From the NCBI GenBank assembly GCA_963796685.1, contig CAWCMR010000025.1, positions 640,001-704,000 on the forward strand: 64,000 bases of DNA. Direction: 5' to 3'. Shown here piece after piece: positions 35,560 through 46,797 of the stretch; position 1 is the first letter of the stretch; each line of letters begins with the position of its first letter. A program made the translations under genes and the position numbers. The DNA comes from an uncultured delta proteobacterium (lineage in GTDB: Bacteria; Myxococcota_A; Polyangia; Fen-1088). The notes under the pieces are model-generated. The model had not been told where the DNA came from. It saw only the letters and a list, made by a program, of their open reading frames with translations, and ran no database searches.

Positions 35560-36902
35560 ATGCGTGTAAGAAGACGCAGTCCTTGCTGTTCGAGAAAGCC
35601 GACGGCCGGCTTTCGGCGGACGTGTGCGCCGAGATGGAGTCCCACCTGGCCATCTGTCCCCACTGCAAGCAAACCTTCGCGGCGTGGACCTCTGCCCTGC
35701 CGCGTCTGCGTAGCCTGGACGCCGAGGAGATCTCCGCCGTCAGCCTGCGCCGCATGGAGAGCGAGATCTTGCGCGATCTGCACGGCAGCGTCCGGCCCCG
35801 TTCGCGCCGCAGGCTGGTTTTCGCGCTGGCTGCCGCCCTGATCCTGGCCGCAGGCGCCGGGCTGCTGGCGATCCGATCCGCGCCGCCGCAGCCGTTCGCA
35901 CGCATTCAGAGCCTGTGGGGCAAGGTCACGCTTTCGGGCGTAGCCATGAGCAAGGGCGCGACCGTGGGGCCAGGTGGGGTGCTCGAAATCACCTCGGAGG
36001 GCGAGGCCGACTTCCTCATCGGCCGGGGCGCGGAAGCGCGACTGATGGGACCTGGGCGCGTGGCCTTCGACGGCACGACCAAGGCTCCTCGGCTTCGTCT
36101 CGACAGCGGTCGCGTCTTCGTGCAAGTGGCCCATCGGCAACCGGATGAGAGTTTCCGCGTGACCACCGCGGATGGCCGGGTGGAGGTGACCGGCACGCGC
36201 TTCGTGGTGGGGTACGACGCGCAGGGATCCTACGTCCACGTGGACGAGGGCCAGGTGCTGGCCTATCGCCAGGGCGAGCCCGAGCCATGGCCAGTCGGAT
36301 CCGGCTCGACCTTCTCGCTCAAAGCCGAAAAACCGCCGGGGGGGAACCCGCTGCCCGCCGTGGAGCCGGTGCCCGACGCGCGGGCATGCGCGGGGTCGGC
36401 CTGCGCCGAGGAGGGCGCGCGCGCGCGCAAGGCCATGCGCGCGGGCAATCCCTTGCGCGCGGTCAACATCGTGGACGAGACGCTGGCCAAGCTCGAAGAC
36501 TGCTCGCCGGCGTCGCGCTGTCTCGACGAGCTTGGCTATCTGCGTGCCGAGGCCTTGCGCCAGGCCGGCCGCCTGGACGGCGCGATCGCGGCCTACAAAT
36601 CGCTCAATCGCGCCGGGGCAACGCGAGCCATGCGACAGAACGCGCTCTACGCCGCGGCCCAGTTGGAGCGCAAGCTCGGCCGGAACGAGGACGCGCGACA
36701 AAGCCTGGAACGCGCCTACACCGCCTATCCTGACGGCGCGCTTTCCGAGGAGGCCCTGGCCGGGCTCTTGGATGTGCAGCAAGCCACGGGCGCGGGCGCG
36801 CGGGCCGCCGCCGAGCGATACCTGGCTCGCTTTCCGCAGGGGATCTCGGCGGCCCGGGCTCGGCGTATCCTGTCGGGTGCGCCATCGGCTCGGCCCCGCT
36901 GA
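35556..36902 (+). CDS. Anti-sigma factor: zf-HC2 + TM + FecR + TPR
   Basis: HLAICPHC, TM helix, VEVTGTRFVV..VDEGQV FecR motif, TPR ending YPDGALSEEA..YLARFPQG. Confidence 0.85.
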   Translation: MNACKKTQSLLFEKADGRLSADVCAEMESHLAICPHCKQTFAAWTSALPRLRSLDAEEISAVSLRRMESEILRDLHGSVRPRSRRRLVFALAAALILAAGAGLLAIRSAPPQPFARIQSLWGKVTLSGVAMSKGATVGPGGVLEITSEGEADFLIGRGAEARLMGPGRVAFDGTTKAPRLRLDSGRVFVQVAHRQPDESFRVTTADGRVEVTGTRFVVGYDAQGSYVHVDEGQVLAYRQGEPEPWPVGSGSTFSLKAEKPPGGNPLPAVEPVPDARACAGSACAEEGARARKAMRAGNPLRAVNIVDETLAKLEDCSPASRCLDELGYLRAEALRQAGRLDGAIAAYKSLNRAGATRAMRQNALYAAAQLERKLGRNEDARQSLERAYTAYPDGALSEEALAGLLDVQQATGAGARAAAERYLARFPQGISAARARRILSGAPSARPR

Positions 36903-38083
36903 TGTCCTCCTGCTCGTCCTTTCGAGTCGTCGCTTCCGGCGCGCACAGCGCGACGATCTTCGCGCTGTTGGCCGGGCTCGTGGCCCCCACGGGTTGCGTT
37001 CGCGACGTGGAGCTGGCGAGCGCGCCCGTGCTCGTCCATTGCGCAGGCGACGGTGAGACCTGCGCAAGCGACGACCTGTGCTGCTCGGGCACCTGTGCGG
37101 CGGGGGCCTGTGCTCACACGCTTTGCCTCGACGAGGGCTTGGCCTGCCAGCGCCCCGAAGACTGCTGCTCGTACCTTTGTCAGCAGGACGGCAGCGGGCA
37201 GCTTTCCTGCGCCTCGGACCTGGGCTGCGCCGGCCCGGCAATGCCGTGCGGCCGGGCAGCGGCATGCTGTGGCCTCGGCTGCGCCGAGACCGGCACCTGC
37301 GGAGGAACCCTCTGTGCCGAAAGCGGCGCGGCCTGCACCGTGGCCAGCGATTGCTGTGGTGGACGCTGCGACGCCGGCAAGTGCGCGGCGCCCGGGCCAG
37401 GCTGTCATGTGGCGGGCGAAGCCTGTGCCAGCGGGGATGAGTGTTGTGGCGGCCAATGTGGATCGGTCCTCGAGGGCGTCAGCGGATGTCTTCTCTTGAC
37501 CGGTTGTCGGGTGGCCGGCGAAACCTGCGGCAACGCCACCGATTGCTGCTCGGGATTGTGCCAAGTGGGCGCCGATGGTGCGGCCAACTGCAAGGCCCTC
37601 CCTGGTTGCAAAATCATCTCAGAGCGATGCGCGACGGCCAAGGACTGCTGTTCGGGCGCGTGCGGAACGGACGGGCGCTGCCAGGGCGCCGGCGGATGTT
37701 TTCCAAAGGACGAGCGCTGCCAATCCAACGACGATTGCTGCTCGGGTGCCTGCCACACGGTCCCTGAAGGCGTTCTCCGCTGCGCGGACGTCCCGGGTTG
37801 CAAGGCCGCCGGGGTATCGTGCAAGAAATCCGCCGAGTGCTGCGATACCGCTGCCGTGTGCAATGGCGACGGGCGTTGCCAGGTGACCAGCGTCTGTCGA
37901 GCCGGAGAGCGACCGTGCTCCCTGCCCGCCGATTGTTGCTCGGGCGTGTGCACGCCCAGCCTCACGGGCAAGCTGGCCTGCCGCGACTCATGCGCCCCCG
38001 CGGGCGCCCCGTGTACGGGCGCGGCCGACTGCTGCACGGGAAGCTGCGGCGGCTTTCCGGCGCGCTGCCTGCCGGTTCCGTAG
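36902..38083 (+). CDS. Lipoprotein of 11 tandem C-C-CC-C-C modules
   Basis: Lipobox PTGC; repeats such as CRVAGETCGNATDCCSGLC. Confidence 0.8.
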   Translation: MSSCSSFRVVASGAHSATIFALLAGLVAPTGCVRDVELASAPVLVHCAGDGETCASDDLCCSGTCAAGACAHTLCLDEGLACQRPEDCCSYLCQQDGSGQLSCASDLGCAGPAMPCGRAAACCGLGCAETGTCGGTLCAESGAACTVASDCCGGRCDAGKCAAPGPGCHVAGEACASGDECCGGQCGSVLEGVSGCLLLTGCRVAGETCGNATDCCSGLCQVGADGAANCKALPGCKIISERCATAKDCCSGACGTDGRCQGAGGCFPKDERCQSNDDCCSGACHTVPEGVLRCADVPGCKAAGVSCKKSAECCDTAAVCNGDGRCQVTSVCRAGERPCSLPADCCSGVCTPSLTGKLACRDSCAPAGAPCTGAADCCTGSCGGFPARCLPVP

Positions 38084-38106
38084 CGATTCTAGGTGGCAGC
38101 CAATCT
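37141..38106 (+). repeat. Direct repeat copy A (966 bp)
   Basis: Aligns with 45841..46797 from ggcctgcca to ccaatct. Confidence 0.92.
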
Positions 38107-38514
38107 GCCGACCAGTTGACACTCGACCATCTGGCCAATGCCTCCGTGCAAGGCCTGGTCGCGACGGGGCCGCGCCGAGGCCGCCGCGTGTTGCGTCTGG
38201 GAGGTCGCGGCGAGGATGCCGAGGCCGCAATCATAGGCAAGCGATGCGCGGAGGTCGCGGGTTTCAATGTGCACGCGAACGTACGCGTGGGTGCCAACGA
38301 TCGCGACGGCCTCGAACACTTGTGTCGCTACCTTGCCAGGCCGCCCATTGCCAACGACCGCCTACAAGAACTGCCCGACGGCCGGCTTGCCTTGCGCTTC
38401 AAGCGAGTTTGGCGGAACGGCACGACGCAGATCGTATTCACGCCGCACGAGCTGATAGAGAAGCTGATCCCGTTGATTCCCCGACCTCGTTGCCATCTTG
38501 TCCGATAACACGGG
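38107..38514 (+). pseudogene. IS91/ISCR-family (Y2) transposase fragment
   Basis: GFNVHA..LEHLCRYLARPP..FKRVWRNGTT..IPRPRCHLVR*HG; no 5' part, cut at the RIT end. Confidence 0.85.
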
Positions 38515-38705
38515 TTATGCAGAGCACCGCATAAGCCATGTTATGCGGAGCGCTCGATTATGCGGAGTGCCGCGATGTGCCCGTCACGATCCCTGCGTGT
38601 CGGCGGGTAGTTGACCGCGTGGCGCGCCCTAGACGGCTCAGCATAACGGAGGTGTCCTCCTCTCAGGGCCGGGATGATCCCGACCCGTCCACCGAGGAGG
38701 AAACA

Positions 38706-39947
38706 ATGTTGGAGTACTTTCTGCGATCGGCGTACTGGCTCGCGCGAGCTCGATCGAGTCCCGTTGGGTCGTATCTCGACGGCTTCGCCACTGCTCTACG
38801 CGAGATCGGCTACTGCAAGCGGATTGGCACATGGTGCATCACCTACGCCGTGCATCTCGGCATTTGGGCCACTGCTGAGGACGTGCGAATCGGGGATTTG
38901 GACGAGGAAACTTTGAGCGCATTCTTGGCGCACCTGTCTCGATGCCGTTGCCCCGGAAACCGCGCCGGTTTTCATGCAGTCGCCCGTCCGCGCACGTGGG
39001 TCTTCGTGCAGTACTTGCGCACAGTGGGGGTCGTTGCGGTTCCGGGGCAGCAGGCGATAGCAACACCGGATCTGGTGACGGGGTTTTGCGAGTGGATGCG
39101 GCGCCAGCGTGGCGCCACAGATACGACCTTGCGCCACTACAGGCGCGTTGCCATCGCACTCCTGGAACACCTCGGTGACGACCCCGCTCGCTACGGGGCG
39201 GGCGTGCTTCGAGCGGCGGTGCGTGAGGTAGTCGGTGGACATGGCGCCGCAACGGCGAAGCAAGTTACGACCGTCGCACGCGCATTTCTGCGCTACCTCG
39301 CACTGGAGGGACGGTGCCGACCTGGTCTTGATGCGGCCGTCCTGCCAGTGGCGAGTTGGAGTTTGGATTCGCTGCCGAGGTACGTGTCCGCCGAAGTCGT
39401 GCAGCGGATCATCGACGCGTGCGATTCGAGTCGACCGGACGGTGCGCGCGACCGCGCCATCCTGCTGCTCCTCGCCCGGCTCGGACTACGGGGCGGCGAC
39501 ATCGTCCGGATGCGCCTAAGCGACATCGACTGGGCAAACGCTCGCGTGCAGGTCGCGGGCAAGGGGCGCCGCGAGGTGCGGCTGCCGCTCCCCCAGGAAG
39601 TCGGAGATGCGATCCTCGCCTACTTGCGCGCCCGGCGCGCTGTTGTCGGATGTGACCGGGTTTTTCTGAGATCCCGTGCACCGTGGCGGCCGTTGGCGGA
39701 AAGTTCCTGCGTTTCCTGCATCGTCAAGCGCGCCATCGCCCGTGCGGGCGCATCCACCCCGACCCGGGGCGCTCATCTACTGCGTCACTCTGCCGCGACG
39801 GCGATGCTACGTGAAGGCATCTCCCTTCCTTCGATCGGAATAGTGCTCCGGCACCGATCTGTCGAGACGACCTCCCACTACGCCAAGGTCGATGTGGAGC
39901 TTCTGCGTTCAGTGGCGCAGCCGTGGATCGGAGGGGCGTCATGCTGA
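38706..39947 (+). CDS. ritA: Tyrosine recombinase, RitA-type
   Basis: GLRGGD, GKGRR, HLLRHS, LRHRS, HYAKVD. Confidence 0.88.
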   Translation: MLEYFLRSAYWLARARSSPVGSYLDGFATALREIGYCKRIGTWCITYAVHLGIWATAEDVRIGDLDEETLSAFLAHLSRCRCPGNRAGFHAVARPRTWVFVQYLRTVGVVAVPGQQAIATPDLVTGFCEWMRRQRGATDTTLRHYRRVAIALLEHLGDDPARYGAGVLRAAVREVVGGHGAATAKQVTTVARAFLRYLALEGRCRPGLDAAVLPVASWSLDSLPRYVSAEVVQRIIDACDSSRPDGARDRAILLLLARLGLRGGDIVRMRLSDIDWANARVQVAGKGRREVRLPLPQEVGDAILAYLRARRAVVGCDRVFLRSRAPWRPLAESSCVSCIVKRAIARAGASTPTRGAHLLRHSAATAMLREGISLPSIGIVLRHRSVETTSHYAKVDVELLRSVAQPWIGGASC

Positions 39948-40660
39948 TGACACTCATCGATACCTGGCTGGCCACGCGGCGAGCAAGCGGTTTCGCGCTC
40001 AGAAAATACGAGCGGCACCTGCGTCGATTCGCCGAGTTCGCCGCCGCCCGCGGCGAGGACCACGTTCGCGCCGAAACCGCCCTCGCGTGGGCATCGCACG
40101 CGGCCACACCTGGCCAGCGGTGCCGGCTCTTCCAGCGGGTCGTTCAACTCGCCCGCTATCTCCACGCCGAAGACCCCCGCCACGAGATTCCCCCGGATCG
40201 CCACTTCTCGGGAAAGCGGCATCGGCCGGTTCCGTACATCTACACCCCGGACGAAACGCGCCGGCTCGTCGAGGTCGCAGCGCGGCTCGGACCAGCAAAG
40301 TCGCTCCGGCCGCTCACCGTGAGCACGATGCTGGCGCTGCTCTTTGCGACAGGGCTACGCATCTCAGAAGCACTCGCCTTGCGCATGGCTGACGTGACAT
40401 CGGACGGCCTGGTCATCCGCAAGACCAAGTTCGGCAAGACGCGTCTGGTCCCGCTCCATCCCTCGGCGCAGAGCGGGATCAAGCAGTATCTGGACCGCCG
40501 ACGTGCAGTGGCCGGCAGCGACGACCACGTGTTCGTGAGCATCAAAGGCACGCGTCTTTCCTACGGCGGCTTTCGCAAGGCATGGCTCACGGTGCTCCGG
40601 AAAGCTGGCCTGCCGGCGCGGTCGGGAGGACGCAAACCGCGCGTGCACGACATCCGGCAT
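39941..40660 (+). pseudogene. ritB: RitB-type tyrosine recombinase truncated at HDIRH
   Basis: PYIY, TGLRISEAL, TKFGKTRLVP, PRVHDIRH, then reads into the inverted repeat; catalytic Tyr missing. Confidence 0.85.
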
Positions 40661-40687
40661 TATGCCGAGTCCCCGGTTATGCCGAGT
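40655..40687 (+). repeat. Left 33-bp inverted repeat of inner RIT
   Basis: cggcattatgccgagtccccggttatgccgagt is the exact reverse complement of 44026..44058. Confidence 0.95.
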
Positions 40688-40800
40688 GAGCCTCTCGATC
40701 TGGCGCGATCAACGGCGATTTCCTCGGCAGGTGGGCTTGCGGACTCGGCATAACCAGGGCGTCGTCGTCTCCTTCTGGCCACCGGGCCGAAGGAGGACAC

Positions 40801-42033
40801 ATGCCCCGGATGCACGACGATTTTCTGAAATGGCAACGACTGCGCGCTGGCCCCTTGGGTCCGCACCTCGACACGTTTGCAAAAACGCTCACTGAGAGGG
40901 GATATCCGCCTGCGACCGTGGCGTGCAAGGTGCGCCTGGCAGCGAAGTTCGGAGACTGGCTTGGACGGCGAGGACTGACTGTCGAGGAGGTCGACGAGCA
41001 GGCCGTAGCCCGCTTTGTCCGGCGCCATCCCTGCGTACCCCGGCGTGGAGACGCAGCGACATTGCGTGATGTCCTTGAACGGGTCCGTTCCGCCGGTCTT
41101 GCGCCGCCAGCGCCCGTCAAGGTCGATGACACTGCGATCGGGCGGATCGTGAGTGAGTTCGGCCGGTATCTGTTGGTGGACCGCGGCTTGTCCGTCTTGA
41201 CTCAGATCAACTACCTGCCCATTGTCCGCTCGTTCCTCCTGGAGCGGTTCGACGGCAGGAGGGTGCACCTCAATGCGCTCGGGCCCCAGGATGCGGGTGA
41301 ATTTCTGGTCCGGCATGTTCACGTGGTCCATCCAAAGAGAGCCGCTCTGATGGTTACCGCCCTACGCGGTTTTCTGCGGTGGGTGCACGTGAAAAGAGCC
41401 CTGGCTGCAGACCTCGCGGCCACGGTTCCCGCGGTCGCCTGCTGGCGTTTCTCAACGGTGCCGAAATCGATCCCCGCGCGCGACGTCGAGCATCTGTTGC
41501 GCCGCTGTCGACGAAGAAACTCCGAAGCCGGCCTGCGCGACCACGCGGTCATTATGCTGATGGCACGACTCGGCCTCCGCGGTGGAGAAGTCGTGAGCCT
41601 GGATCTGGCAGACTTCGACTGGGCCGCAGGCACGTTGCGGGTCCACGGCAAGGGTGGGCGGCAAGACGTCCTCCCGTTGCCGTCCGATGTCGGCAAGGCC
41701 GTCGCCCGGTACTTGCGCCATGGCCGCCCAGCATGCTCGTGCCGGAGAGTCTTCGTCCGCGCGAGAGCGCCGCGGCGTGGCTTCGCAACCACGGGCGCGG
41801 TCTGTACGATCGTGAAGCGAGCGCTGGAACGCGCCGAACTGGACCCACCACGCAAAGGCGGGCACATCCTCCGCCATGCGCTCGCCTGCTCGATGCTGCG
41901 CCGAGGAGCGACCCTTACCGAGATCGGGCAGGTCCTGCGACACCGTCGAGCCGATACGACGACGATTTACGCGAAGGTAGACTTCCATGCGCTACGTGCG
42001 CTCGCTCCTGCATGGCCAGGAGGCAGGCGATGA
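40801..42033 (+). CDS. ritA: Tyrosine recombinase, RitA-type
   Basis: GLRGGE, GKGG, HILRHA, LRHR, IYAKVD; AGGAGG RBS. Confidence 0.9.
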   Translation: MPRMHDDFLKWQRLRAGPLGPHLDTFAKTLTERGYPPATVACKVRLAAKFGDWLGRRGLTVEEVDEQAVARFVRRHPCVPRRGDAATLRDVLERVRSAGLAPPAPVKVDDTAIGRIVSEFGRYLLVDRGLSVLTQINYLPIVRSFLLERFDGRRVHLNALGPQDAGEFLVRHVHVVHPKRAALMVTALRGFLRWVHVKRALAADLAATVPAVACWRFSTVPKSIPARDVEHLLRRCRRRNSEAGLRDHAVIMLMARLGLRGGEVVSLDLADFDWAAGTLRVHGKGGRQDVLPLPSDVGKAVARYLRHGRPACSCRRVFVRARAPRRGFATTGAVCTIVKRALERAELDPPRKGGHILRHALACSMLRRGATLTEIGQVLRHRRADTTTIYAKVDFHALRALAPAWPGGRR

Positions 42034-42965
42034 ATACGCTCCGCGAGGGCGCCGAGGAGTACCTGTCGCTGCGACGCCGTCTGGGCTACAAGCTCGACCG
42101 CTCGGGGCGGTTACTGCTGCAATTTGTGTCCTTCATGGAGCAGCGGAAGGCTCCGTTCATTACCAACGATCTGGTCGTCGAATGGGCCGTGCGGCCGACC
42201 AAGACCCAGCCCGTGTATTGGGCCAGCCGGCTATCGGCGGTCCGGCTCTTTGCACAGTATTGGCGCGCCACCGATTCTCGCACCGAGGTCCCTGCCCTCG
42301 GGCTCCTCCGGGCTCGGTATCAACGCAAGCGCCCCTACATATACAGCGAGGACGAGATCATGCGGCTGATGGATGCGGCGGCACGGCTCCCATCGCAGAC
42401 GGGGCTTCGTGCTCAGACCTACGTCACGCTGCTTGGCCTGCTCACCGTGGCCGGTCTGAGGATCAGCGAGGCGATCGCTCTCGACCGCGAGGATGTTGAC
42501 CTCGAAGGCGGGATCCTGACAATCCGCCGGACCAAATTCGGGAAGACCCGGCTGGTGCCCATTCATCGATCGACGAAACTGGCACTTTGCCGGTACGCAC
42601 GCTTCCGTGATCGCGTTCATCCAACACCACGGACGAGAAGCTTCTTCGTCGGCGAGACAGGTGCCCGGGTGGTGAAGAACACTGCAGAAGACACCTTCGT
42701 CCATCTGTCTCGCCGGATTGGGCTTCGTGGTCCTGAAGGTCGTCACGGTCATGGGCCGCGTCTGCATGACCTTCGGCATCGGTGGGCCGTGGACACCATG
42801 CTGCGCTGGTACCGGGCAGGAGTCGATGTGGAGCGGCACCTGCCGCAGCCGTCGACCTACCTCGGGCACACCCACGTCAGTGATACCTACTGGTACCTGA
42901 CCGCAGTGCCCGAGTTGATGAGCCTCGCCATGTCGCTCCTGGAGCGAGATAGGACGTCGCCGTGA
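42030..42965 (+). CDS. ritB: Tyrosine recombinase, RitB-type
   Basis: PYIYS, GLRISEA, TKFGKTRLVP, HDLRH, STYLGH, TYWYL; 4-nt overlap with ritA. Confidence 0.9.
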   Translation: MNTLREGAEEYLSLRRRLGYKLDRSGRLLLQFVSFMEQRKAPFITNDLVVEWAVRPTKTQPVYWASRLSAVRLFAQYWRATDSRTEVPALGLLRARYQRKRPYIYSEDEIMRLMDAAARLPSQTGLRAQTYVTLLGLLTVAGLRISEAIALDREDVDLEGGILTIRRTKFGKTRLVPIHRSTKLALCRYARFRDRVHPTPRTRSFFVGETGARVVKNTAEDTFVHLSRRIGLRGPEGRHGHGPRLHDLRHRWAVDTMLRWYRAGVDVERHLPQPSTYLGHTHVSDTYWYLTAVPELMSLAMSLLERDRTSP

Positions 42966-43960
42966 AGCCCTCCCACGGATTCCCTGCGCTGCTTGAGTCC
43001 TTCTTCGTGGACCATCTCCTGCGCCAGCGTCAAGCAAGTCCACATACAGTGCAGAGCTATCGCGATACCTTCCGCCTACTGCTGGCCTTCACGAAGCAGC
43101 ACCTGAAGAAGACTCCCTCGGCGCTCGCACTGGACGACCTCGACACACCAACGATTGGCGCGTTCCTGGATCACATCGAGAAGGACCGCGGCAACTCTCC
43201 GCGCACCCGCAACGCCAGGCTCGCGGCGATCCACTCCTTCTTCCAGTACGCCGCCCTCCAGGCGCCCGACTACAGCGCCGTCATCCAGAGGGTTCTGGCC
43301 ATGCAGGGCAAGAAATACGATCGCGAGCTCGTCCACTTCCTGTCCCGGCCCGAGATCGACGCACTCCTCGAAGCTCCCGACAAGGCCACATGGTCCGGCC
43401 GGCGCGATCGCGCCATGCTCCTTGTGGCCGTTCAGACCGGGCTGCGCGTATCCGAGCTGGCCGCGCTCAACGTGCAGGACGTGGTCCTCGGACCCGGCGC
43501 GTACGTTCACTGCCTCGGCAAGGGCCGCAAGGAACGTTGCACGCCCCTGCGCAAAGAGGCCGTCTCGGTCCTCCGGGCGTGGCTGCGCGAACGTGCCGCC
43601 ACCGGGACCGAGCCCCTCTTCCCCAACGCGCGGGGCGGTTTCCTCAGTCGCGACGGCGTCGAGTACCTGCTCGCGAAACACGTGCAGGTCGCTCGGATCC
43701 GCTGCCCCTCGCTGAGGGAGAAGCATGTGTCTCCGCACGTGCTGCGCCACTCGACGGCAATGGATCTCCTTCAAGCCGGTGTCGACAGCTCGGTGATCGC
43801 GCTCTGGCTTGGTCACGAGTCGGTCGAGACCACGCAGATCTACTTCGCTGCCAGTCTCCAGCTCAAAGAGCGAGCGCTGGCCAAGACAGCACCCTCGGCA
43901 GCGCGACCTGCTCGCTTCCACCCCGACGACAAGCTCCTCGCCTTCCTACAGAGCCTTTGA
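42962..43960 (+). CDS. ritC: Tyrosine recombinase, RitC-type
   Basis: SPHTVQSYRDTF, TRNARLAAIHSF, GKGRKER, PHVLRHS, WLGHES..TTQIY. Confidence 0.9.
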   Translation: MKPSHGFPALLESFFVDHLLRQRQASPHTVQSYRDTFRLLLAFTKQHLKKTPSALALDDLDTPTIGAFLDHIEKDRGNSPRTRNARLAAIHSFFQYAALQAPDYSAVIQRVLAMQGKKYDRELVHFLSRPEIDALLEAPDKATWSGRRDRAMLLVAVQTGLRVSELAALNVQDVVLGPGAYVHCLGKGRKERCTPLRKEAVSVLRAWLRERAATGTEPLFPNARGGFLSRDGVEYLLAKHVQVARIRCPSLREKHVSPHVLRHSTAMDLLQAGVDSSVIALWLGHESVETTQIYFAASLQLKERALAKTAPSAARPARFHPDDKLLAFLQSL

Positions 43961-44025
43961 TTATGCCGAGTCGCGCACGTAAGCGAACCCGAAGTCCCCG
44001 TGATTCCTGCATGCAATGGCGGGCA

Positions 44026-44058
44026 ACTCGGCATAACCGGGGACTCGGCATAATGCCG
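44026..44058 (-). repeat. Right 33-bp inverted repeat of inner RIT
   Basis: actcggcataaccggggactcggcataatgccg. Confidence 0.95.
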
Positions 44059-44080
44059 CTTATGCCGAGCACGGCATAAG

Positions 44081-44173
44081 CGGCACACATGCGCGTTGGA
44101 CACGCTCCGGGCCACCGGGGATCTCCGCAAGGTGTCGCTCTGGCTCGGACACACGAGCCAGTCGACCACCGAG
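44081..44173 (+). pseudogene. C-terminal fragment of a RitC-like recombinase
   Basis: Manual translation RHTCALDTLRATGDLRKVSLWLGHTSQSTTE; homology stops just before the catalytic Tyr. Confidence 0.75.
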
Positions 44174-44379
44174 AAGTTCTCAGGAACAGATAGGGAAATG
44201 AACGTCTTCTCGATTGCCGCCTCCCTCTTTGACGGCACAACGGCCTATATCTGGCTCTCCTGACATCTTCGTAAAGGGAGATCTCGTAGGTGCGACGCAC
44301 GTCGTCGACGGAGATGTGGGCGGCATGAGTTTCGGGTGAGGTGGAGACGAAGTGCGCACGGGCACCTGGGGGTGCCCGT

Positions 44380-44433
44380 GTATAGGGGATAGATCGAGGA
44401 GGCTGACGTGTGGGTCTTTGTAGTTGACGTAAG
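44380..44433 (-). repeat. 54-bp repeat copy 1, oriIS-like (ends CCCTATAC on - strand)
   Basis: Matches 45602..45654 except for one indel and one substitution. Confidence 0.8.
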
Positions 44434-44746: not shown

Positions 44747-45601
44747 TCATGCAGTACCAGCCTTGCGTGGGGGAGCGCGAGTTGGCGGTAGTAGTTGACG
44801 GACTATTGTGCGTTGCTGACAGCGAGGGCAGAGCAGGACATCTTTTCCCGTGAGCGCAAGCAGCAACTCTGGCCAGGGAAGATTTGGATCGACCCCGCCG
44901 ACGGATGCAAGACCGTCACCATCATCGTAGCCATCATGCTGAGCGTCGGCAGATGCGGTGGCGGGCACGAGGTCGGCAGCGTGCTTCAGCCTGGTGTTGA
45001 CGTTGCCGGAGGCCATGAGTCCGAAGTGGCGAATCTTTACGAATTGGTTGGGTAGGATGTGTTGAAGAAATCTCCCGATGAATTCGGTCGGCGACAATGA
45101 GGTGGTGTCGCTGCCGTGGGTACGGAAGACGACCGCCTGGTCGTCCACGCTGACCAGGCGAGCGTTGCTGATGGCCACGCGATGCGTATACCTGCCGAGA
45201 TAGCGAAACACTTGCTCGGGACCACCGAAGGGGCGCTTGGCGTAGACGACCCAGCTTGTCTTGTACAGGCGCTGCCTGCGGCGACGGGCAGCACGGTCTG
45301 GGACATCGTCGTGCAACTCGCCTTTGTCGAGCAGCTGTTGCAGGCCGGCCATGAACTTGCCCCGAAAGAGAGCGCCCACGACATGGACGGGAAATAGAAA
45401 GTCGCGTGGCGCCGGTACCCACTAGCTCTGGTCGCGCGCAAGACCGCCGCCGGTGACGATACAATGGACATGGGGATGAAACAGGAGGGCGAAGATCTTG
45501 GCTCTGTTGTTGCGGGCGAGACTGTGCAACTCGCTGGGAATGGTGAAGACGATGTGGAAGTAGTGGACTGGCAAGATGCGCTCAAGGCGACCCTCGCCCG
45601 G
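44747..45601 (-). pseudogene. IS91-family (Y2/HUH) transposase pseudogene
   Basis: ERILPVHYFHIVFTIP..HPHVHCIVTGGG, in-frame TAG at ~45422, WVVYAKRPF, RYLGRYTHRVAISNARL, KIRHFG, CPRC; 5' truncated, and the segment before HPH appears deleted. Confidence 0.88.
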
Positions 45602-45654
45602 GTATAGGGATAGATCGAAGAGGCTGACGTGTGGGTCTTTGTAGTTGACGTAAG
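45602..45654 (-). repeat. 54-bp repeat copy 2 (53 bp), oriIS-like, at the transposase truncation point
   Basis: gtatagggatagatcgaagaggctgacgtgtgggtctttgtagttgacgtaag. Confidence 0.8.
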
Positions 45655-45840
45655 CTTCTTACCGGACATTTACTCCGGATGCGTTTCGGTGAAGGAAAGA
45701 GAGGCGCTCAAAACAACTACGCTCATCCGAGCACGAGGCTGCTATCCCGCCCAACACGCCCGGACGGCTATTGTACCGATTACAAGCTTCTGCGGCGGCT
45801 CTACTTCAAGCACCGCAGCGGCGGCAGCTGGCGAGGACAC

Positions 45841-46797
45841 GGCCTGCCATCGTCCCGAGGACTGCTGCTCGTACCTTTGTCAGCAGGACGGCAGCGGACA
45901 ACTTTCCTGTGCCTCGGACCTGGGCTGCGCCAGCTCGGCGATGCCGTGTGGTCGCGCGGCGGCATGCTGTGACCTCGCGTGTGGCGGCACGGGGACGTGC
46001 GACGGGCCGATCTGCGCCCAAAGCGGCGCGGCCTGCACCGTGGCCAGCGATTGCTGTGGCGGACGCTGCAACGCCGGCAAGTGCGCGGCGCCCGGGCCAG
46101 GCTGCCATGTGGCGGGCGAAACCTGTGCCGGCGGGGATGAGTGTTGTGGCGGCCAATGTGGGTCGGTCCTCGATGGCGTCACTTCTCTTGACCGGTTGTC
46201 GGGGGCCGGCGAGACCTGTGGTAACGCCACCGATTGCTGCTCGGGATTGTGCCAAGTGGGCGCCGATGGTGCGGCCAACTGCAAGGCCCTCCCTGGTTGC
46301 AAAATCATCTCAGAGCGATGCGCGACGGCCAAGGACTGCTGTTCCGGTGTGTGCGGAACGGACGGGCGCTGCCAGGGCGCCGGCGGATGTTTTCCAAAGG
46401 ACGAACGCTGCCAATCCAACGACGATTGCTGCTCGGGTGCCTGCCACACCGTCCCTGAAGGCGTTCTTCGCTGCGCGGACGTCCCGGGTTGCAAGGCCGC
46501 CGGGGTATCGTGCAAGAAATCCGCCGAGTGCTGCGATGCCGCTGCCGTGTGCAATGGCGACGGGCGTTGCCAAGTGACCAGCGTCTGTCGAGCCGGAGAG
46601 CGACCGTGCTCCCTGCCCGCCGATTGTTGCTCGGGCGTGTGCACGCCCAGCCTCACGGGCAAGCTGGCCTGCCGCGAGTCATGCGCCCCCGCGGGCGCCC
46701 CGTGTACGGGCGCGTCCGACTGCTGCACGGGAAGCTGCGGCGGCTTTCCCGCGCGCTGCCTGCCGGTTCCGTAGCGATTCTAGGTGGCAGCCAATCT
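45841..46797 (+). repeat. Direct repeat copy B (957 bp): 5'-truncated duplicate of the Cys-rich gene plus the malQ 3' end
   Basis: Same protein text (RPEDCCSYLC..FPARCLPVP) with substitutions and 8-nt + 1-nt deletions; no signal peptide. Confidence 0.9.

Follow-up and report, generated by a model that had tools for sequence, protein, structure and literature searches.

The stretch of DNA analysed here (64,000 nt, hereafter the window) derives from an uncultured delta proteobacterium (GTDB lineage Bacteria; Myxococcota_A; Polyangia; Fen-1088) and corresponds to positions 640,001 to 704,000 of contig CAWCMR010000025.1 (GenBank assembly GCA_963796685.1). It contains two nested recombinase-in-trio (RIT) elements. 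The inner element, designated RIT-I, is complete and interrupts an older element, RIT-O (Table 1). Both ends of RIT-I lie at the Arg-His (RH) codons of the HxxRH motif of tyrosine recombinases, at the left in ritB and at the right in ritC of RIT-O. It is highly likely that RIT-I is a recently active RIT transposon that inserts site-specifically into the DNA of the HxxRH box of tyrosine-recombinase genes, that it moves according to the circle model described below and that part of RIT-O was deleted in the window.

Table 1 Features of the nested RIT elements and of the flanking target gene (window coordinates)
Feature	Position	Strand	Pfam match or remark
IS91-family (Y2_Tnp) transposase gene, 3' part, target of RIT-O	38215-38514	+	PF04986 for ORF 37798-38508
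RIT-O 20-bp palindrome TTATGCAGAGCACCGCATAA	38515-38534	+	
RIT-O 6-bp spacer GCCATG	38535-38540	+	
RIT-O left terminal repeat	38541-38568	+	two direct TTATGCGGAG arms 7 nt apart
RIT-O ritA, ~414 aa, intact	38706-39947	+	PF00589
RIT-O ritB, 5' part, 239 aa	39941-40659	+	PF00589 4-133 of 172; cut after ..VHDIR(H)
Left 6-bp junction CCGGCA	40654-40659	+	Arg-His codons of RIT-O ritB
RIT-I left terminal repeat	40660-40687	+	TTATGCCGAG, 7 nt, TTATGCCGAG, T
RIT-I further inverted arm, left	40744-40753		
RIT-I ritA, 410 aa	40801-42033	+	PF00589 and PF02899
RIT-I ritB, 311 aa	42030-42965	+	PF00589; 4-nt overlap with ritA
RIT-I ritC, 332 aa	42962-43960	+	PF00589 and SAM-like domains; 4-nt overlap with ritB
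RIT-I further inverted arm, right	43961-43970		
RIT-I right terminal repeat	44026-44053	-	perfect inverse of the left repeat
RIT-I element-borne spacer TGCCGC	44054-44059	+	
RIT-I 20-bp palindrome TTATGCCGAGCACGGCATAA	44060-44079	+	one more arm pair
Right 6-bp junction GCGGCA	44080-44085	+	Arg-His codons of RIT-O ritC
RIT-O ritC, 3' remnant RHTCALDTLRATGDLRKVSLWLGHTSQSTTE	44081-44174	+	identical to the ritC 3' part in contigs C10 and C11

Anatomy of the inner element

RIT-I covers 3,420 bp (40660-44079) and is composed of a 3,394-bp end-to-end part, a 6-bp spacer and a 20-bp palindrome; the limits of the inserted block were taken from a joint in a metagenome contig. The three tyrosine-recombinase genes lie on the same strand and overlap by a few nucleotides, in line with the overlaps of 4-8 bp of RITs. 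The encoded proteins belong to the RitA, RitB and RitC subfamilies, and their lengths of 410, 311 and 332 aa agree with the range of ~315-410 aa and with the long RitA of such elements. Moreover, in a blastp comparison of 25 related elements, every open reading frame had its best match in one of the three subfamilies, which follow one another in the order A-B-C along each element. As read from the translations, all three RIT-I proteins possess the catalytic residues R..HxxR..Y (HILRH..TTIYAKV, HDLRH..SDTYWYL and HVLRH..TTQIYFA). NCBIfam has no RIT-specific model, and all five Rit proteins gave only Xer/integron-type matches below the cut-off in this database.

A preliminary description of this DNA had noted a 33-bp inverted repeat, which was indeed recovered as a perfect 33-nt repeat with 100% complementarity (40655-40687 and 44026-44058). 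The outermost 5 nt of this repeat coincide with the CGGCA/TGCCG at the junctions. Spacer and palindrome, which fill the 26 nt from the right repeat to GCGGCA, are RIT-I DNA, and the right repeat, the spacer and the palindrome together form a full inverted core site. The arms of the palindrome comprise 14+14 nt. The arm motif TTATGCCGAG occurs 14 times in the window when one mismatch at most is allowed, as compared with an expectation of 2.27, and none of 100 shuffled sequences reached 14. Terminal inverted repeats, an overlapping palindrome and a length of about 3.5 kb were thus all found, and the occurrence of five RIT-I copies in four flank combinations suggests that the element is mobile as a unit. 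The anatomy of RIT-I is that of an ordinary RIT.

Both junctions lie at Arg-His codons and the DNA between them is missing

The statement that RIT-I begins directly after the ritB codons for H-D-I-R-H agrees with the letters 40645-40660: the left junction (40645-40659) reads CAC GAC ATC CGG CA, and the first T of RIT-I (40660) completes the motif. At the right junction, CGG CAC ACA TGC from 44081 encodes R-H-T-C. The attribution of these codons to a RitC-type gene holds, since the fragment 44081-44174 is letter-identical to the 3' part of RIT-O ritC. Furthermore, the fragment lies downstream of 100%-identical RitA and RitB in contigs C10 and C11 of the same genome and does belong with the outer RitA/RitB, as had been proposed. 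The 31-aa remnant matches PF00589 from position 133 to 162, with an E value of 0.0023 that is weak by itself, and the full 80-aa version of the ritC 3' part matches positions 133-170 (E 3.4e-5), which identifies the right-hand fragment as part of a tyrosine recombinase.

The preliminary description had also concluded that the DNA between the two target sites is missing, and this could be substantiated with intact relatives. In intact RIT-O copies, the RH break points in ritB and ritC are 956-957 nt apart, counted through GCGGCA. In contigs of two other metagenome runs, X2 and X4, window position 40659 is joined to 44080 via 950 other letters; these contigs represent an uninterrupted relative of RIT-O. 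Thus, the window carries 3,420 bp of RIT-I where intact copies have about 950 bp of ritB-3'/ritC-5' DNA. One X2 contig (side 31) joins 40688 to 43973 on opposite strands.

Copies and targets of RIT-I in the genome

The genome assembly comprises 7.3 Mb in 26 contigs with 88.6% completeness and 6.5% contamination, and the window is located in a 2.1-Mb contig. Five full-length copies of RIT-I with 100% (rounded) identity are present; the 28-nt end of the element occurs five times in forward and five times in reverse orientation, and it is absent from the control. Copy 1, the one in the window, is a hybrid with the 5' part of RIT-O ritB at the left (VHDIRH, followed by TFAV in the intact gene) and the 3' part of RIT-O ritC at the right. 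Copy 2 (contig C12) is a clean insertion into ritA of a third RIT, RIT-P, with ..GAHVLRH at the left and the 3' part of the same gene, TAATRMV.., at the right. Copy 3 (C10) is again a hybrid, which joins the 5' part of RIT-P ritA to the 3' part of RIT-O ritC. Copies 4 and 5 (C11 and C10, respectively) are clean insertions into RIT-O ritC at ..SPHTLRH / TCALDTL.., in which the element is inverted. Because copies 4 and 5 share flanks, they were counted as one insertion event.

There are thus three independent targets in this genome, namely one ritA, one ritB and one ritC gene of two other RITs. In all three, the 5' part ends and the 3' part starts at position 133 of PF00589, and every junction is a 6-bp (G/C)CG(N)CA sequence that covers the Arg-His codons. 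The clean insertions retain both halves of the target, with the 6-mer on either side. Independent insertions at the same motif with both target halves recoverable at PF00589 position 133, as would be required for homing, were therefore found. Genome-wide, the bare 6-mer (G/C)CG(G/C/T)CA occurs 55,456 times. A consensus of 13 bases shared by the three targets, CAC-N4-T-S-CG-N-CACAC, has only five unoccupied matches, of which four are located in recombinase genes. Some of the target recombinases share only ~36-37% protein identity with RitA of RIT-I. All RITs other than RIT-I that were found in a tblastn census are disrupted (RIT-O at three loci, RIT-P at one full and one partial locus), which fits the picture of one element acting against another, for a small sample. 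Contig C3 ends in a RitC fragment of 89% identity, which represents one more RIT remnant.

The RH boxes of RIT-I itself, RHALA in ritA (41860-41880), RHRWA in ritB (42765-42785) and RHSTA in ritC (43735-43755), diverge immediately 3' of the 6-mer from those of the targets (RHT/S/C-F/Y/C-A). This divergence is possibly the way in which RIT-I spares itself. None of the RIT-I copies seen lies inside another RIT-I.

Insertions in independent metagenome samples

Public metagenome runs, which covered at most 0.31 of the sampled words, were analysed as Logan contigs and not as raw reads. A soil metagenome run (X3) contains a relative of RIT-I with ~95% identity, which is flanked by ..KRVHPHMLRH before 40658 and by RHCFATHMLEAG behind 44086 and therefore occupies a fourth, unrelated recombinase target. 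A scan with the 24-nt internal core, including the 6-bp core of RIT-I, identified 15 loci with 16 matches, one of them at a contig end, and 15 readable flanks on the side of the palindrome. Ten of these 15 flanks are recombinase genes that begin with RH, and they represent eight distinct targets (L159, L162 and L164 share one). All seven metagenome recombinase flanks that were tested start at PF00589 position 133, and the flank peptides differ widely among themselves. The 5' halves of the targets are also visible in L154 (..HVLRH/) and L156 (..HSLRH/), which are mini-elements of 365 and 432 bp inserted at HxxRH codons. The three targets in the genome, the X3 relative and the ten flanks starting at RH support the earlier proposal that RIT-I targets the HxxRH codons, and with it the inference of homing.

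Mini-elements of 329-432 bp that consist of both RIT ends and a palindrome and carry no genes were observed at L052, L074, L088, L154 and L156. They are likely non-autonomous derivatives of RITs, similar to miniature inverted-repeat transposable elements.

No DNA of these genes is conserved better than the RH box, and the element end contains CGGCAT, giving microhomology. One could thus argue that the nested arrangement arose at the RH box of paralogous RITs by illegitimate or homologous recombination, without any site-specific integration. This explanation is very improbable because clean insertions of whole elements with the 6-mer on both sides are found for copy 2, copies 4-5, L100, L154, L156 and X3. 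Moreover, the targets include genes of low identity to RIT-I RitA, the metagenome flanks are diverse, and the junction is base-exact every time.

Orientation rule and proposed mechanism

Copies 1-3 of RIT-I carry the palindrome at the right end, and copies 4-5 carry it at the left end. The AGCA in the centre of the palindrome keeps a fixed orientation with respect to the element, and the palindrome always adjoins the 3' half of the target. The same two permutations were detected among related elements, in IS256-targeting L044 (direct) versus L113 and L141 (inverted), and in L100 (inverted). In L098 (positions 353-404), a right end, a spacer, a palindrome, a second spacer and a left end form the joint between two adjacent elements, which, as read from the sequence, is the form predicted for a circular or tandem state. 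That the palindrome keeps to one side of the target in both orientations agrees with a circle in which two core sites face in opposite directions. The flanking 6-mers CCGGCA, GCGCCA and GCGTCA differ from the internal GCGGCA, and up to three of six positions deviate in L141; some heterology within the spacer must therefore be tolerated.

We propose that RIT-I moves via a circular or tandem form. The joint of the circle would consist of the right end, the spacer, the palindrome, the reverse-complement spacer and the left end, thereby forming a near-palindrome of ~48 bp that holds two complete core sites in opposite orientation. One of the cores would cross over with the target within the 6-bp spacer, with some mismatch being tolerated. 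Since the spacer is asymmetric, the choice of the core would set the orientation of the element, and the palindrome would always come to lie on the 3' side of the target. In the window, RIT-I may first have entered RIT-O at one RH site, and the 950 bp between the RH sites of ritB and ritC would have been lost afterwards. Two routes would be equally expected to yield the hybrid: the right-hand end site of the element may have recombined with the second RH target, located 950 bp downstream, or two inserted RIT-I copies may have undergone homologous recombination with each other. In either case, the outcome would be an outer element in which ritB and ritC are destroyed. Hybrid flanks are also seen elsewhere: L080 is bordered by two different recombinase 5' halves, L141 by two different IS256 genes, and copy 3 of this genome is a hybrid as well. 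These cases suggest that such rearrangements are real and common.

Related elements have lineage-specific targets

A scan of one-genome-per-species contigs for two TTATGCCGAG arms separated by 7 nt uncovered at least 119 stretches with at least 150 ends, 49 of which have an adjoining palindrome. The matches listed contain 142 distinct ends, and the counts in this section refer to them. Extraction and translation of the flanks, which the preliminary description had suggested as a check, revealed H..RH directly at the junction for 4 of the 142 ends as compared with 3 of 10,222 offset control positions. When 3' halves are counted by eye, about 10 of the 142 ends lie at recombinase RH sites (L059, both ends of L080, both ends of L100, L107, L127, L134, L147 and L150). 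The number is given as approximate because the assignment of target classes by regular expressions made doubtful RH calls for L070 and L071 and missed L150; it left 84 of the 142 ends unclassified.

The elements of other lineages have different 6-bp spacers and are seated at other conserved motif codons. Such ends were found at the QRCxx/H motif of IS256 transposases (15 ends), at the YADD (9 ends) and PQGG (4 ends) motifs of reverse transcriptases, at PKSVS of TrwC (3 ends), at KFxK of RitB (3 ends) and at LRLLT of AAA_22 (2 ends). Single cases concern the boxes of DDE integrases (L084 and L144), IS110 (L116) and an IS66 accessory protein (L079). Eleven ends adjoin a TTAACCGG-like non-coding word. 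In Acidobacteriota, the elements at L037, L039, L051, L085, L090, L101, L128, L132, L133 and L135 are associated with a TTAACCGGCC-like word in apparently non-coding DNA.

To classify the flanks, every frame that abuts a junction was compared with Pfam (E<=1e-5), which amounts to 333 frames from the 135 ends whose flanks were long enough; this replaced the choice of the longest open frame, which mislabels high-GC flanks. The frames matched Transposase_mut (16), RVT_1 (11), Phage_integrase (10), TrwC (6), AAA_22, DDE_Tnp_1_4, HTH_Tnp_1, HTH_Tnp_ISL3 and rve (2 each) as well as DDE_5, DDE_Tnp_1, Recombinase, RepSA and IS110 (1 each). Five frames are clearly cellular (two ankyrin, one Sel1, one PSCyt1 and one histidine kinase). 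Most Pfam-matched flanks are thus genes of mobile elements. At L126, a frame that reads like a histidine kinase has the junction ..LVRLAD/, which is a look-alike of the YADD site and therefore points to recognition of the DNA rather than of the protein.

A RitA+B+C tree of the 25 complete elements places the five RH-targeting elements in one clade of seven rows (SH-aLRT 92), together with two unclassified rows, and the IS256-targeting elements form a clade of their own (SH-aLRT 100). The 14 target labels require 15 changes on the tree as compared with 18.6 in shuffled data, and none of 200 shuffles was as low. Since the tree is a quick, midpoint-rooted one with some long branches, it was used only to assess the clustering of the target classes. 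According to this tree, the target class appears to follow the phylogeny of the elements.

The preponderance of mobile-element genes could also be a matter of survivorship: the element might insert at any (G/C)CGNCA and persist only in the dispensable genes of other mobile elements. The 6-mer is indeed very common, with more than fifty thousand sites in this genome alone, and the Pfam-matched flanks are mostly dispensable genes of this kind. However, survivorship predicts insertions at many positions of such genes, and position 133 was found in 3 of 3 genome targets and in 7 of 7 metagenome flanks tested. Furthermore, the five copies of RIT-I are near-identical and hence recent, so that there was little time for purging. 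Survivorship is therefore a very improbable explanation.

Weighing the evidence for homing

Several observations speak against the interpretation of RIT-I as an element that homes to HxxRH codons via a circle. Five of the 15 readable metagenome flanks are not recombinases but DUF222/HNH-class genes ending in ..LC(R/G), and the specificity is thus not absolute; none of the 15 flanks falls outside these two classes. Three of the ..LC(R/G) flanks were compared with Pfam and yielded DUF222 and HNH (L161), DUF222 (L153) and no match (L158). The close relative L061, which has the arm spacer of RIT-I, adjoins a frame read as Sel1-like, the Sel1 match in Pfam being that of one member, not named, of the L061 batch. 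L035 is located in a recombinase gene, away from the RH codons. The target arms bear little resemblance to the element arms, and the RH label requires three changes on the tree because the clade also includes two unclassified rows. Copies 2 and 3 have a length reduced by 1 nt and a ritA gene that is split in tblastn, which indicates that some RIT-I copies are not intact. Copies 4 and 5 have flanks in common for only 388 and 869 nt. Finally, the contig data provided no sighting of a circular junction, an empty site or transposition for this genome. Targeting is not exclusive to recombinase genes.

At the five loci with ..LC(R/G) codons (L153, L155, L157, L158 and L161), the internal 6-mer of RIT-I is combined with different palindrome centres and with the opposite strand of the 6-mer. 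L157 is apparently a clean full-length insertion (..LLCR / RHHRAIHEEG).

The quality of the assembly has to be considered as well. The genome is a 26-contig draft with 6.5% contamination, and the hybrid copies 1 and 3 could be collapses or chimeras over a 3.4-kb repeat, which is a further point against our interpretation. Two RIT-I copies, one in ritB and one in ritC or both at separate loci, would then have been collapsed by the assembler into a hybrid with an apparent 950-bp deletion. The flanks of both hybrids also occur elsewhere in the genome, and the public runs could be used as contigs only, without raw reads. Such an artefact is nevertheless unlikely. A third copy of the ritB 3'/ritC 5' segment was not found in the assembly, the window lies inside a 2.1-Mb contig, and hybrid flanks are present in unrelated assemblies too (L080 and L141). 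Even if the hybrid were an artefact, both junctions would remain at RH codons, and homing would stand.

The outer element and its surroundings

RIT-O is itself inserted in the gene of an IS91-family transposase. In the window, the transposase fragment ends with ..RCHLVR*HG at the 6 nt CACGGG (38509-38514), and in contig C11 the gene resumes past the right end of RIT-O. The insertion point reads ..HLVR*HG / ILGPAAKDRAKVVP, and the left arm of this target (..CCGATAA) is similar to the own arm of RIT-O (..CCGCATAA). The right end matching the left repeat is present in C10 and C11 and absent from the window, and the unit of palindrome and spacer is found at the opposite end of RIT-O in C10. RIT-O is thus found as either circular permutation, and the two copies of the IS91 transposase gene concerned have diverged from each other (window, C11 and C10).

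The RitA protein of RIT-O is 100% identical in C11 and C10. The intact ritB gene in C10 continues with ..HDIRHTFAV.. to a length of 303 aa. In C11, RitB comprises only 274 aa, without the part surrounding the catalytic Tyr; this copy is hence decayed, besides its ritC being hit. The ritC remnant in the window has been cut a second time after 44174, before the catalytic Tyr, where an X2 contig has a loose end. In C10 and C11, the same 94 nt run on into ..TTEIYLQAD.. and a stop codon.

The mobile DNA is bracketed by two copies of a gene for a Cys-rich repeat protein (36902-38083 and 45629-46774), which are 97% identical over the 300 nt compared. The stack may be seated in a segmental duplication, or it may have caused one. 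The segment 44253-44371 is the terminal part of a repeat that the genome contains at least 15 times, and the X1, X2 and X4 contigs all diverge at 44371. A 48-nt direct repeat (98% identical; 44386-44433 and 45607-45654) surrounds a fragment of an IS91-family transposase gene on the minus strand (44747-45379).

The stack between the Cys-rich gene copies contains IS91 fragments, two RITs and other repeats. As mobile elements gather in such junkyard regions, the nesting could have arisen by chance, and the coincidence with the RH codons would then be meaningless. The likelihood of this is close to nil because RH codons are the site of insertion in all three genome targets and in eight distinct targets in other samples. 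The excess of H..RH at the junctions over the control positions leads to the same conclusion.

Broader significance

Beyond RIT-I, we tentatively consider, as a possibility that is somewhat less than even, that the RITs as a family are specialised hyperparasites, in which the 6-bp spacer of each lineage, together with contacts to the arms, directs the element into the motif codons of a rival enzyme. The motifs read at the junctions include RH of tyrosine recombinases, KFxK of RitB, CxxH of IS256 transposases and YADD/PQGG of reverse transcriptases, and also the D and E boxes of DDE integrases, motifs of IS110 and of an IS66 accessory protein, PKSVS of TrwC and LCR of HNH proteins. If this reading is correct, the target class would be heritable and re-set by a change of the spacer, and each insertion would disable a rival. 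The orientation rule would follow from the palindromic circle with its two cores, and the mosaics of truncated RITs on plasmids such as pHG1 would follow from repeated recombination of element ends with targets. The hitting of rivals may be a selected, "parasitic" strategy or a by-product of picking targets that are conserved and dispensable.

RITs are common in bacterial genomes. In the literature considered here, their movement was never shown and their choice of targets was not tested. With a target that is defined to the codon, a minimal unit of ends, spacer and palindrome, and natural mini-elements of 329-432 bp, a direct integration assay becomes possible. These features also offer a handle on the question of why three recombinases are needed. 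If homing is general, RITs would be natural mobile DNA that disables mobile DNA, which bears on the control of element load. Moreover, RITs represent a compact recombinase system whose target is seemingly set by a short sequence that the element carries.

Comparison with known systems

The RITs of Cupriavidus metallidurans CH34, C. necator pHG1 and others have been described as ritA/B/C trios of ~3.5 kb whose ends are variable and whose 28-9 bp inverted repeat overlaps with a palindrome (Van Houdt et al. 2012, PMC3414803). The sections of this study considered here also record single RIT insertions, which interrupt a transposase gene and radC. For pHG1 and a plasmid of Aromatoleum, they list "complex combinations" in which rit genes are truncated or absent, and no explanation is offered. 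Imperfect palindromes of 47-51 bp have been reported for RIT ends in the part of a later study covered here, in which a circular junction was not found (Nielsen et al. 2017, PMC5737581). As far as the consulted text goes, RitA, RitB and RitC were only classified in one study (Smyshlyaev et al. 2021, PMC8138268), and the target specificity of RITs is listed as not tested in another (Idola et al. 2023, PMC10214605). RIT-I shares with these elements the overlapping trio, the length of ~3.4-3.5 kb, the repeats of ~28-34 bp, the palindrome and the presence of several identical copies (PMC3414803; PMC10214605). It differs by a codon-precise target, a palindrome that switches ends and a nesting that can be explained, whereas the portions of the published accounts considered contain no target rule. 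Within the literature covered, which excludes Ricker 2013 and supplementary material, an account of RITs homing to RH codons, or to codons for motifs of other elements, was not found.

The Tn554, SE and GInt elements resemble RIT-I in that they use several tyrosine recombinases, are site-specific and take 6 bp of flanking sequence into the circle (Idola et al. 2023, PMC10214605). Unlike RIT-I, they have no RIT-type paired-arm inverted repeats, and they carry a fourth gene (TnpC, Srap or GinD) as well as cargo, according to the parts of that article considered; homing to catalytic-motif codons of other elements is not mentioned there for them (PMC10214605). Relative to the literature found, both the lineage-specific homing with codon precision and the orientation rule based on two cores that we deduce from the sequences appear to be new.

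A preference for functional sites of other mobile elements is also known from the "res-site hunters" Tn5053/Tn402 and from IS1111-type elements. However, these elements use DDE or DEDD transposases and aim at recombination sites and not, like RIT-I, at active-site codons. Homing inteins and group I and group II introns are selfish DNA that occupies the most conserved coding stretches of essential genes. Inteins and introns splice out and leave a working host gene, whereas a RIT destroys the gene that it enters, which is a gene of another selfish element.

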